Notes: generated by a model from the sequence alone, not told the origin. DNA of 64,000 nt from Escherichia coli (GCF_017348835.2 NZ_CP071375.1); one strand, 5' to 3'. Shown: positions 22,704 through 53,548, numbered from the stretch's first letter. Program-made: numbers and translations.

Positions 22704-22777
22704 CGGACGTCTTGTCGAGTAGCAATCGGCTTTTTATGACGCTGGTTTCAGATTGGTGACAAAGTGCCTGTGTTTAT

Positions 22778-22812
22778 GCCGGATGCGGCGTTAACGCCTT
22801 ATCCGGCCTACA
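22778..22812. repeat. REP (repetitive extragenic palindrome) between barA and gudD
   Basis: GCCGGATGCGGCG...CGCCTTATCCGGCCTAC palindromic unit typical of E. coli REP. Confidence 0.7.
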
Positions 22813-22934
22813 AAACCAATTAAATTCAATGAATTAAAAAATGATGTAGACTTGATACATAGCACAACAGGCTATTTTGCGTTTAGCATCAGTCTCAAAC
22901 CGGCTCCAGATAGAGCCGGTTTTGGTTTTCTGTC

Positions 22935-51239: not shown

Positions 51240-52046
51240 TTACCCCTGACGCGCCGCTTTCGCCATCATCTTCTTCAGCGCATGAGAAACCGCAACAAAC
51301 CCAAAGGTGGCGGTCACCATCGTTGCCGCGCCAAATCCAGATGCACAATCCATCCGCTTTGGTCCTTCCGCCGTGGCTTTCATCGCACACACCGTGCCGT
51401 CTGACTGCGGGTACACCAATGCTTCGGTAGAGAACACGCAATCCACGCCGAGCTTACCTTTACTGTTTTTCACTACGCCAAAATCGCTTTTCAGGCGCTC
51501 ACGCAACTTCGCCGCCAGCGGGTCCTGAATCGTTTTCGCCAGATCGGTAACCTGAATCTGCGTTGGGTCAATCTGCCCACCCGCGCCACCGGTCGTGACC
51601 AGCGGGATTTTATTGCGCCGACAATAAGCAATCAGCGCCGCTTTGGGTCGTACACTATCAATGGCATCAATCACGTACGAATAACCGGCACTCATATATT
51701 GCGCTACGTTATCCGGCGTCACGAAATCATCCACCACCGTTACACGGCACTCCGGGTTAATCTGGCGAATACGCTCCGCCATTACTTCCGCTTTTGCCTG
51801 CCCGACGTTATCGCGCAGAGCGTGAATTTGCCGATTGGTATTGGTGACGCACACATCATCCATATCGATAAGCGTGATTGCGCCAATCCCCGTGCGCGCC
51901 AGCGCTTCCGCCGCCCAGGAACCGACACCGCCAATACCGACCACACAAATATGCGCGTCAGCAAACAGTTGCAGCGCTTTTTCACCATACAGACGCGCTG
52001 TGCCACCAAAACGCTGACGCCATGCATCACTAATTACCACAGACAT
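51240..52046 (-). CDS. tcdA: tRNA threonylcarbamoyladenosine dehydratase (ThiF/MoeB-like E1 fold)
   Basis: 268-aa ORF MSVVISDAWRQRFGGTARLYGEKALQLFADAHICVVGIGGVGSWAAEALARTG... Confidence 0.93.
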   Translation of the reverse strand: MSVVISDAWRQRFGGTARLYGEKALQLFADAHICVVGIGGVGSWAAEALARTGIGAITLIDMDDVCVTNTNRQIHALRDNVGQAKAEVMAERIRQINPECRVTVVDDFVTPDNVAQYMSAGYSYVIDAIDSVRPKAALIAYCRRNKIPLVTTGGAGGQIDPTQIQVTDLAKTIQDPLAAKLRERLKSDFGVVKNSKGKLGVDCVFSTEALVYPQSDGTVCAMKATAEGPKRMDCASGFGAATMVTATFGFVAVSHALKKMMAKAARQG

Positions 52047-52064
52047 AGCACCTCAGAATAAAAA

Positions 52065-52247
52065 GGGCGAGGTTATCCCTCACCCTAAACGCATAAATGC
52101 CTGATGCGCTACGCTTATCAGGCCTACATAACTCCTGCAATATTTTGGATTTGCATGATTTGTAGGCCGGATAAGGCGTTCACGCCGCATCCGGCATGAA
52201 CAACGCGCACTTAGTCAATAATCAGGATGTGAGGTTACCCCTCACCC
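52065..52247. repeat. Composite REP cluster (BIME-like): two REP units bracketed by two small GC hairpins with near-identical sequence
   Basis: Hairpin GGGCGAGGTTATCCCTCACCC (52065-85); REP GCCTGATGCGCTACGCTTATCAGGC (52099-123); REP GCCGGATAAGGCGTTCACGCCGCATCCGGC (52166-95); hairpin GTGAGGTTACCCCTCACCC (52229-47). Confidence 0.7.
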
Positions 52248-52283
52248 TGTCATATCCGTAAAAACGGCATACAGAATATCACA

Positions 52284-53381
52284 TCAGCCACTAAAGACGT
52301 TACCTGCGCCCGGAGCCGTTTTCAGCACCCAAACCCGTCCATAGTGGTTGTACCAACCTGCGCGGTGTCCGGCTTCCGGCCCGATCCCTTGATAGATATC
52401 GAAGTGTTGGCCTTTGATTGCGCCACCGACATCCAGCGCCACCATCAGACGCAATTCGTACTGACCATTAAATTTGCCGTTATTATCCAGCAGCGGCACT
52501 TCTGCCAGCAAGGTTGTACCTGGCGGAATAATGGAACGATCAGAGGCAACAGAAGCACGGCCAACCAGCGGCACCGCACTTGCCCCTTTCACCGGTGCAA
52601 AAGATTGAGGTTTAAAGAAGACGAAAGACGGGTTCTGTTCCAGCAGCTCGCGAACCTCGGCTTCACTGTGTGTTTCGCCCCAGTGACGAATCGCCTGCAT
52701 CGACATGTCTTCTTTTTTCACTTCGCCACGGTCGATCAGCACCTTACCAATGCTGCGATAGGCATGACCGTTTTTCCCTGCATAGCTGAAAAAGTTAAGC
52801 GGACTGCCATCACCAAAGTCGATATACCCACTACCCTGCACATCCATAATGAAGTTATCCATCAGAGAGTTGCTGTAAGCGAGGATGTATTTATCGCCCA
52901 ATGCCCCTGCGTAGATCTCCGCACGAGACGGCAGACGACCACGTTTTGGCGGCATACGGTAAATAGGATACTGGAACTCGCCCTGGCGGGTATGGCGCGC
53001 CTGAATTACCGGCGTGTAATAGCCTGTAAACTGCACGTTACCATAGTTGTCGGCACCTTCCATCTGCCAGGCATCAATGCCGAACTGGCGCATATTGCGG
53101 GTATCACCGCCTGCGCGCAGCCACTCTTGCACCGCGTTATAAACATTACTCTGGTTGCCATACAGACGCGGTGACGAATTACGGATATGGTTAATTTGCT
53201 CGGCAAAATCACCGGCGTTAATCGGCGCGCCAACGGCATCTGGCTGGTTCACCAGAGAGAAAGGCTGGGTAAATTTCCCGTCTTTATATTGCTGTCCGCG
53301 ATCGGTTGGTTTGGAAGAGCAGGCGGCAAGCATTGCCACAACCGTGCCCATAAGAAGGTACTTTACCCAACGTCCTTTCAT
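52284..53381 (-). CDS. mltA: Membrane-bound lytic murein transglycosylase A
   Basis: ORF 52284..53480; start at MKGRWVKYLLMGTVVAMLAACSS (lipobox LAAC; 365 aa). Confidence 0.93.
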   Translation of the reverse strand: MKGRWVKYLLMGTVVAMLAACSSKPTDRGQQYKDGKFTQPFSLVNQPDAVGAPINAGDFAEQINHIRNSSPRLYGNQSNVYNAVQEWLRAGGDTRNMRQFGIDAWQMEGADNYGNVQFTGYYTPVIQARHTRQGEFQYPIYRMPPKRGRLPSRAEIYAGALGDKYILAYSNSLMDNFIMDVQGSGYIDFGDGSPLNFFSYAGKNGHAYRSIGKVLIDRGEVKKEDMSMQAIRHWGETHSEAEVRELLEQNPSFVFFKPQSFAPVKGASAVPLVGRASVASDRSIIPPGTTLLAEVPLLDNNGKFNGQYELRLMVALDVGGAIKGQHFDIYQGIGPEAGHRAGWYNHYGRVWVLKTAPGAGNVFSG

Positions 53382-53548
53382 TGTTCTCTTCTTCAGGTTA
53401 AAAAATAAGGCGCAACGAAGATAACAAACCGCCGCGTTTAATGAAATGAGCAGCCTCTCCCTGACGCAAATTTTGCACAAAAAATAGCCTTTAGTGATTT
53501 GTTTTTGTTCAAAATCATGCTAAATCCGTGATCGGGGTAAAAAAAAGG

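Follow-up and report, generated by a model that had tools for sequence, protein, structure and literature searches.

The gap studied here lies in an Escherichia coli window of 64,000 nucleotides (the whole stretch of DNA analysed) and separates mltA, whose stop is at 52284, from tcdA, which starts at 52046, by 237 bp. The minus strand encodes both genes, mltA upstream, and the 601-base stretch 51850-52450 is 100% identical to E. coli strain PE164. The following features were assigned:

51240-52046, minus strand: tcdA (tRNA cyclic t6A synthase), from the ORF list and the annotation of identical DNA in PE164 and K-12
52064-52086, minus strand: tcdA-side stem-loop copy, 23 nt, AGGGCGAGGTTATCCCTCACCCT; the minus strand reads AGGGTGAGGGATAACCTCGCCCT
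52087-52225, plus strand: BIME-1 element, 139 bp inserted; absent, together with one hairpin copy, from empty genomes
52087-52099: left-end remnant AAACGCATAAATG, in which ~12 nt of the consensus left end GAGACTGATGAC are missing
52098-52127: Y REP TGCCTGATGCGCTACGCTTATCAGGCCTAC, inverted arm paired with Z1
52128-52161: L linker, 34 nt, which aligns with L of other copies
52162-52196: Z1 REP GTAGGCCGGATAAGGCGTTCACGCCGCATCCGGCA, inverted arm paired with Y
52197-52225: right end with the terminal inverted repeat TGAACAACGCGCACTTAGTCAATAATCAG
52226-52248, minus strand: mltA-side stem-loop copy, 23 nt, GATGTGAGGTTACCCCTCACCCT; the minus strand reads AGGGTGAGGGGTAACCTCACATC, without a U-tract
52284-53381, minus strand: mltA (murein transglycosylase A), within the ORF 52284-53480; the end at 53381 follows from the 1,098-nt K-12 CDS length in the annotation

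The terminator lies upstream of tcdA, and the mltA 3' UTR now holds hairpin, BIME-1 and hairpin. The Shine-Dalgarno sequence and ATG start of tcdA are placed 8 nt past the U-tract of the mltA terminator (52035-52090, minus strand), and this arrangement of terminator followed by the tcdA Shine-Dalgarno sequence is kept across genera. Because no sigma70-like promoter for tcdA was found in 51700-52600, its expression may rely on terminator read-through or on a promoter within mltA. The K-12 RefSeq annotation lists no repeat features in the mltA-tcdA gap. A second small stem-loop, GCCGTTTTTACGGAT, is located between the mltA stop and the hairpin (52250-52283); it is conserved in Escherichia and partly in Citrobacter.

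The duplicated stem-loop and the BIME-1 element

The first-pass annotation had described a REP pair bracketed by two near-identical GC hairpins. Both hairpins are present and are direct repeats of each other: the repeat search aligned GAGGTTATCCCTCACCCT (52069-52086) with GAGGTTACCCCTCACCCT (52231-52248) at 17/18 identical positions and a spacing of 162. A 19-mer hairpin pattern allowing up to three mismatches matched twice in the 64 kb, both times here, with 0.01 matches expected, and none of 100 shuffles yielded two or more matches (0/100). Once compared with relatives, each copy measures 23 nt, and the two are 18/23 identical in direct orientation, the last 3 nt of the mltA-side copy having diverged at this locus. 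An inverted rather than direct duplication was ruled out by the asymmetric loops, which are in direct orientation (TTATC/TTACC; CTAAATGTC in both copies).

Folded as minus-strand RNA, the tcdA-side copy reached -17.2 kcal/mol (z -5.25) and is followed by UUUUUAUU, and the mltA-side copy reached -14.7 kcal/mol (z -2.6). The terminator scan of the tcdA-side copy returned 9 pairs, 6 of them GC, a loop of 5 and the tail TTTTATTCTG; directly after this copy on the minus strand, TTTTTATT (52056-52063) forms the U-tract. The predicted tcdA-side hairpin thus combines the two hallmarks of an intrinsic terminator, a GC-rich stem-loop and a U-tract, and this copy is predicted to be the retained intrinsic terminator of mltA. 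The mltA-side copy, which adjoins the right end of the BIME-1 element exactly, is the second copy of the duplicated target.

The two REP units between the hairpins are real, one of Y type (52098-52127) and one of Z1 type (52162-52196); the type calls combine the description in PMC3333891 with what we take to be the consensus sequences. When compared with catalogued BIME architectures, the order Y, 34-nt linker, Z1 corresponds to BIME-1 as described in PMC3333891. The whole length of the element aligns with BIME-1 copies at other loci, where its Y and Z1 units are also found, and a single, non-tandem, extragenic unit stands between the mltA stop and the tcdA start. The earlier proposal of a bounded BIME-type unit therefore holds in part: Y-L-Z1 form one BIME-1 and the bracketing is not due to chance, but the hairpins do not belong to the module. 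With the REP query, E. coli genomes gave a median of at least 39 places each; the insert's non-REP right flank found 1-9 places per genome (8 in K-12), and one sampled 50-kb block of K-12 yielded one BIME-1.

The L linker matched the Rfam family RF02751 ES036/CssrF with 46.5 bits, against a gathering score of 37.6 (52120-52162, minus strand). No other Rfam family scored above threshold at the element, naRNA4 on the Z1 REP being sub-threshold. The catalogued 'sRNA' family RF02751 ES036 (CssrF) appears to be the BIME-1 linker. The IHF-like core of L is degenerate in the E. coli copy, which reads CAATATTTTGGAT, versus CAATATATTGAAT in the lineage E1V33 (L007).

The ends of the element are the inverted repeats GAGACTGATGACAAA / TTTGTCAACAATCTG, 15-16 nt long, with the consensus (G/C)AGAyTGnTGACAAA. 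They agree at 12-13/15 positions when GAGACTGATGACAAA is set against the reverse complement of the right end, CAGATTGyTGACAAA. Over ~152 bp, the family alignment reads GAGACTGATGACAAAsG.AAAAyTG, Y, L, Z1, TrAACAACGCGCACTTTGTCAAyAATCTG. At tcdA-mltA only one of the two ends, the right, is complete, the left being truncated.

Filled and empty alleles and the ancestral gap

Among 5,426 complete E. coli genomes, 2,754 carried the filled arrangement, and a further 2,670 had a junction exactly 162 bp shorter with a single hairpin. Alignment showed that the short alleles lack the BIME together with one repeat copy, so that one hairpin is left. These alleles form several sequence classes, which resemble either the mltA-side or the tcdA-side copy.

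A 41-nt query laid over the one-hairpin site found 8,201 places in 5,425 genomes, effectively none of them outside this gap, with one place in each empty and two in each filled genome. The hairpin was thus ruled out as a dispersed repeat. The suggestion that it might be a REP-associated motif likewise failed, as it occurs only in this gap in the 5,425 E. coli genomes searched and stands as a single copy, with no REP at all, in other genera.

Flank distances do not separate filled from empty E. coli alleles: the filled K-12 allele differs at 3/497 sites from the empty allele of CM2 and at 18 from the filled allele of the window strain, and all E. coli alleles are 30-50 differences, over ~480 sites, from the filled alleles of non-coli Escherichia. 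Since filled and empty flanks are intermixed and the filled non-coli lineages lie this far away, the empty E. coli alleles appear to be derived, most likely by secondary deletion between the repeats. Direct repeats of 20 nt with a 139-bp quasi-palindrome between them are a classic substrate for slippage deletion.

For the state of the gap outside E. coli, 80 orthologous loci from other species were retrieved with TcdA. Within Escherichia, the sample at this locus comprised E. coli, the divergent lineages L006 and L007, and E. albertii (L008), E. fergusonii being among the species left out. The single-copy state in relatives is a gap of 70-110 bp that holds a single AGGGTGAGG..CCTCACCCT hairpin, a T-tract and the Shine-Dalgarno sequence of tcdA. 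It was seen in Citrobacter amalonaticus, C. sedlakii, Phytobacter, Leclercia, Salmonella enterica arizonae, Enterobacter mori, E. asburiae and E. quasihormaechei. Because the one-hairpin gap recurs in Citrobacter, Phytobacter, Enterobacter, Leclercia and Salmonella, the single terminator is the ancestral state. The duplicated sequence comes from the target.

The insertion is common to E. coli, L006, L007 and E. albertii, with identical junctions and an identically truncated left end in all four, and it is absent from all non-Escherichia relatives. The mltA-side copy of E. albertii has diverged at six positions; the changes include two paired double substitutions (G-C to A-T) and a U-G wobble in the mltA-sense RNA, and the stem is kept. 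These data are explained most economically by a single insertion at the root of Escherichia and, later, at least one precise deletion in E. coli.

Related arrangements were found at the orthologous terminator in two other groups. In Kosakonia sp. S29, a REP-type pair of the genus's own, bounded by CAGATTTTTGACAAAG and GTTGTCAGCAATATC, sits between two copies of a GGGTGAGG..CTCAC hairpin. The Cedecea-like terminator, ACGGGCTGTATAATCAGCCCGT, differs in sequence and is single in C. davisae; in three Cedecea-like genomes it is duplicated around elements of 127-138 bp, which have ends such as GAGGTTGCTGACAAAG and TTTGTCAGTGGTCTG and non-REP interiors that matched no Rfam family. The Kosakonia and Cedecea-like insertions are independent events at the orthologous terminator, with related ends. 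Judged by these comparisons, the outer motifs would behave as terminal inverted repeats that belong to a wider, MITE-like family, with BIME-1 as its form in Escherichia. Within the 80 outgroup loci, no further such elements were found beyond those in the tcdA-mltA gap.

Other repeats also occupy the mltA-tcdA gap. REP pairs replace the hairpin in three Citrobacter genomes (L011, L013, L030), inverted CCCTCTCCCTSAGGGAGAGGG units lie beside GGGTGAGGG in Pseudocitrobacter (L053, L058), and UBA5654 (L023) carries a 663-bp array of ~120-bp tandem units. The gap appears to be a hotspot for repeat insertion.

Duplicated stem-loops at other element-bearing loci

Other copies of the element were gathered by BLAST, by a metagenome scan with the flank motif (112 usable segments, giving 7 loci) and from the window itself, which holds one in the gudD-barA gap. 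This sample was seeded with the right-end motif of the element and is not an unbiased census. At 6 of the 12 element-bearing Escherichia loci, a different local terminator stem-loop of 18-26 nt is duplicated flush against the element ends, and two more, gudD-barA and L145_1434, carry decayed duplications. Three of the duplicated pairs and the gudD-barA element are:

artJ-rlmC: left copy AAGCCGCAACCGCGGCTT, right copy AAGCCGCACATGCGGCTT, stem AAGCCGC....GCGGCTT
Gap between a prohibitin-family gene and tkt: left copy AAGGGCCGCTTTCGCGGCCCTT, right copy the same 22 nt
yqjG-yqjF: left copy AAACGAGGAGCGTTTCTCCTCGTTTT, right copy AAACGAGGAGCTTCCCCCTCGTTTT, stem AAACGAGGAG...CCTCGTTTT
22723-22922, minus strand: element of the gudD-barA gap with its flanks, the 148-bp element at 22749-22896
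22897-22922: gudD-barA flank AAACCGGCTCTATCTGGAGCCGGTTT
22723-22748: its decayed copy AAACCAGCGTCATAAAAAGCCGATTG

The two copies of the hairpin beside tkt, AAGGGCCGC....GCGGCCCTT, are identical at 22/22 positions in L089, and the prohibitin-family gene next to it is tentatively yqiK. A local hairpin is likewise duplicated at rsmS-mscK and L145_777. The gudD-barA assignment was made from sequence, BLAST to the element consensus and gene annotation. This element has a degenerate Y REP and a decayed 26-nt duplication of a terminator-like hairpin, and has the appearance of an older insertion.

Local alignment of the 35-nt left and right flanks scored 12-19 at six loci and 8 at two more, whereas non-cognate flank pairs, used as the null, had a mean of 5.7 and a maximum of 8 (n=108). 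The gudD-barA flanks are among those scoring 8, and their alignment starts exactly at the junction; in every positive locus the repeat adjoins the element ends exactly. One-copy empty sites were verified at three loci, namely tcdA-mltA, artJ-rlmC (3,192 genomes filled) and yqjG-yqjF (78 filled). The duplicated stretches (18-26 nt) agree within 1-2 nt per side with the predicted DNA stem-loops (20-28 nt) and are symmetric about the dyad. The hairpin duplication thus recurs at other loci, and it is best read as a target-site duplication whose length is set by the hairpin.

Four of the 12 loci showed no clear duplication. The entD-fepA copy, present in 5,345/5,426 genomes, has complete ends and no repeat; cysM-yfeS has its right end truncated at a gene-content breakpoint; L175 is a short-linker variant; and no more than a partial repeat of 12 nt is seen downstream of uvrB. 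These copies may be old or rearranged, but they could also mean that the duplication need not occur every time. The BIME-1 at yaaX-yaaA has neither these ends nor a duplication.

Several single arrangements were also recorded. In a 396-bp variant at artJ-rlmC (L211, E. coli EC2641), the BIME-1 is kept and the left hairpin copy is lost with ~24 nt, which shows that one copy of the duplication can be lost secondarily. At cysM (L217), the BIME-1 lies exactly at the breakpoint, with yfeS in 1,383 genomes and yfeK adjacent in others, as would fit BIMEs that mark where strain-specific segments begin or end. Comparison with L218 and L086 shows that in a metagenome contig, L141, BIME-1 has the left flank of entD-fepA on one side and the right flank of mscK on the other. 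This L141-type rsmS-mscK configuration is probably a metagenome assembly chimera across the repeat, the alternative being real recombination between two BIME-1 copies. Another contig, L145 (JFBN01300879.1, 777-2794), contains three family elements within ~2 kb, an unusually dense cluster; it is ~95% identical to E. coli at yqjG-yqjF and represents a divergent Escherichia-like genome.

Probable insertion at the mltA terminator and comparison with known systems

We consider it quite probable that BIME-1 was inserted at the mltA terminator, that the whole hairpin was duplicated as its target and that a deletion followed later in E. coli. The ancestral gap would have held one GC-rich stem-loop with a T-tract, the mltA terminator, directly before the tcdA ribosome-binding site. 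In the ancestor of Escherichia, a BIME-1 of ~150 bp (Y, an IHF-type L and Z1) would have integrated at this hairpin, with strands joined at both feet of the stem-loop, so that the whole 23-nt palindrome was copied to both sides and the hairpin, not a fixed stagger, set the length of the duplication. The target may have been attacked in an extruded form, as a cruciform or single-strand hairpin, with gap filling afterwards. The feet of an extruded hairpin are adjacent, and the distance between the joining points would therefore be independent of arm length.

In the order of mltA transcription, the first copy would then have lost the U-tract and the second kept it, which would preserve termination and make the BIME part of the mltA 3' UTR. 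The same holds for either direction of transcription: the outermost hairpin copy keeps the U-tract, so that termination should be retained and the BIME would join the 3' UTR. Later, at least one deletion between the direct copies would have removed exactly 162 bp and restored the single terminator, leaving a presence/absence polymorphism of ~50:50. Such deletions, possibly by slippage, should be favoured by the position of a 139-bp quasi-palindrome between direct repeats of 20 nt.

Four other accounts were weighed. That the element arrived without any transposase-like integration seems to us unlikely, if still worth serious thought. It would have entered by template switching, or by breakage of the hairpin and capture of a BIME-1 DNA copy, the cruciform being cut by a junction resolvase or SbcCD and the hairpin-capped ends opened and filled. 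In E. coli, replication does stall at hairpins, which are also cleaved (background cited in PMC3733652), and cruciform resolution leaves the whole palindrome on both ends, so that this route would give a hairpin-length duplication too. It also accords with the search for a cognate transposase: no inverted end pair enclosing an ORF, and so no autonomous partner, was found in 1.5 Mb of collected loci, and the K-12 rayT flanks (L216 2440-2640 and 3120-3360) lack GAGACTGATGACAAA-type ends. The ends of the element, however, are sharply defined and are conserved as inverted repeats across genera even where the interior differs, which points to sequence-specific end recognition rather than random capture. 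Moreover, no microhomology or template-switch signature was seen between the element ends and the target flanks.

The sole wide-spaced end pair in the collected loci, ~1,340 bp apart, most likely belongs to neighbouring L145 elements, judging from their positions. In K-12, rayT is flanked by short-linker, BIME-2-like Y/Z REP pairs. RAYT is not supported as the agent of insertion, because Y1 transposition is not known to duplicate its target (PMC3333891, PMC2817692) and the rayT flanks are without these ends.

The direction of change within E. coli is the second point on which an alternative was considered. The one-hairpin alleles might be the ancestral side of an old polymorphism, the filled allele having spread by recombination with no secondary deletion. 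E. coli recombines freely, the element is rare at some loci (78 genomes at yqjG-yqjF), so that insertions can be young, and the mltA-side loop variant G also occurs in one class of empty alleles, which fits either direction. This account nevertheless predicts that filled and empty alleles would be deeply diverged in their flanks. No such divergence was seen, the two differing at as few as 3 sites. The identical junctions in E. albertii and in two divergent lineages, whose flanks are 30-50 of ~480 sites away, also argue against it, as does the E. albertii mltA-side copy, whose divergence at 6 positions shows the allele to be old there. We regard it as improbable.

It is very doubtful that a tandem duplication of the terminator hairpin, such as slippage might produce, came first and that BIME-1 landed between the copies later, the bracket being incidental. 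Short tandem duplications of hairpins do occur, but two hairpins with no element between them were found in no sampled genome, the copies adjoin the element ends to the nucleotide, and the recurrence at 6-8 other loci and in at least two other genera would need the same coincidence each time. Hardly credible is the remaining account, in which the hairpins, as REP-associated motifs, would delimit a composite BIME and move together with the repeat: the REP pair is symmetrically bracketed, conserved non-REP motifs are known in BIMEs (PMC3333891) and the element does have conserved outer motifs, but these sit inside the hairpins, the hairpin is found nowhere else in 5,425 genomes and stands alone in other genera, and the bracket at other BIME-1 copies is a different, locus-specific sequence.

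Insertion at the terminator with duplication of its hairpin can be extended beyond this locus, with more reserve. We tentatively propose, as a possibility somewhat short of even, that a family of ~150-bp elements with (G/C)AGAyTGnTGACAAA ends targets extruded terminator stem-loops in Enterobacteriaceae and duplicates the whole stem-loop, with BIME-1 as its Escherichia form and with other REPs, or none, in other genera.

In E. coli, REP and BIME repeats were recognised about 40 years ago, and they account for a sizeable part of the intergenic DNA. Earlier work already covers BIME-1 as such, the linker, the location at 3' ends and the variable presence among isolates (PMC3333891, PMC1187871), and a survey describes REP dimers 'inserted within' conserved palindromes in other phyla (PMC3733652). 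According to a 2026 preprint, the mechanism of REP insertion in vivo is not established (10.64898/2026.03.23.713779). Local hairpin duplication at BIMEs is not mentioned in PMC3333891, PMC2817692, PMC3116915, PMC3337134, PMC3184786, PMC1187871, PMC3733652 or PMC8049555, a set of papers that leaves the primary BIME literature of the 1990s outside its scope. The tcdA-mltA case is thus an ordinary BIME-1 at a known kind of location, with an informative and apparently general insertion footprint.

This footprint constrains the mechanism through its defined inverted ends, the whole-hairpin target duplication and the precise empty sites, and a plasmid-borne terminator would make an assayable target. 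If the reading is correct, this would be the first insertion footprint for a repeat of the REP/BIME class; it would place the integration chemistry where a hairpin or cruciform has its base, in analogy to the duplication of CRISPR repeats, and would explain how repeats come to lie at gene 3' ends with no loss of termination. Should the BIME literature of the 1990s already contain the footprint, the case reduces to an ordinary, well-documented polymorphism for a BIME-1 insertion. At this locus, a 162-bp difference in the mltA 3' UTR and tcdA leader sets about half of E. coli strains apart, and this difference could alter mltA mRNA stability and read-through into tcdA.

Among known systems, the closest description is that of BIME-1 (RIP/RIB) itself. 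The element shares with it one Y and one Z1 REP inverted around a long L linker, and it is likewise a single extragenic unit of ~140 bp, 3'-terminal in its transcription unit and found in some isolates but not in others (PMC3333891, PMC1187871). In contrast to our observations, these descriptions include no flanking duplication of a terminator hairpin, and the outer motifs are not treated as cross-genus terminal inverted repeats (PMC3333891, PMC1187871). With REPIN/RAYT systems, in which the mobilisation of REP doublets is attributed to a Y1 HUH transposase, the element shares two inverted REPs in one long hairpin, several copies, presence/absence polymorphism and a rayT in the genome. In IS200/IS605-type (Y1) transposition, however, target duplication is not known and terminal inverted repeats are not used (PMC3333891, PMC2817692), so that the hairpin duplication and terminal inverted repeats at tcdA-mltA are unexpected for Y1; in addition, the elements with related ends in Cedecea-like genomes contain no REPs.

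The likeness to MITEs lies in the size of ~150 bp, the lack of an ORF, the terminal inverted repeats, the flanking direct repeats, the 1-9 copies per genome and the filled and empty sites. REPs 'do not display MITE signatures' according to one review (PMC3184786). In typical MITEs the duplication has a fixed length of 2-10 bp, whereas here it is variable, 18-26 nt long and comprises a whole stem-loop, and no autonomous partner with the same ends was found in the 1.5 Mb of loci and the rayT flanks.

Precise excision of the Tn10/Tn5 type proceeds by slippage between target duplications that flank inverted repeats and restores the site. The 162-bp loss at tcdA-mltA, as read from the population data, would similarly restore one terminator, but the direct repeats here are 20-23 nt long and are themselves hairpins. 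In spacer integration by Cas1-Cas2, strand transfers at both borders of the palindromic CRISPR repeat are followed by gap filling, and the repeat is duplicated. Our locus has no array or cas context, the insert is 150 bp long with inverted ends of its own, and the targets are unrelated terminators of variable length; the analogy, the nearest we know of, would be a mechanistic one, with an entire palindrome copied to both sides of the insert.
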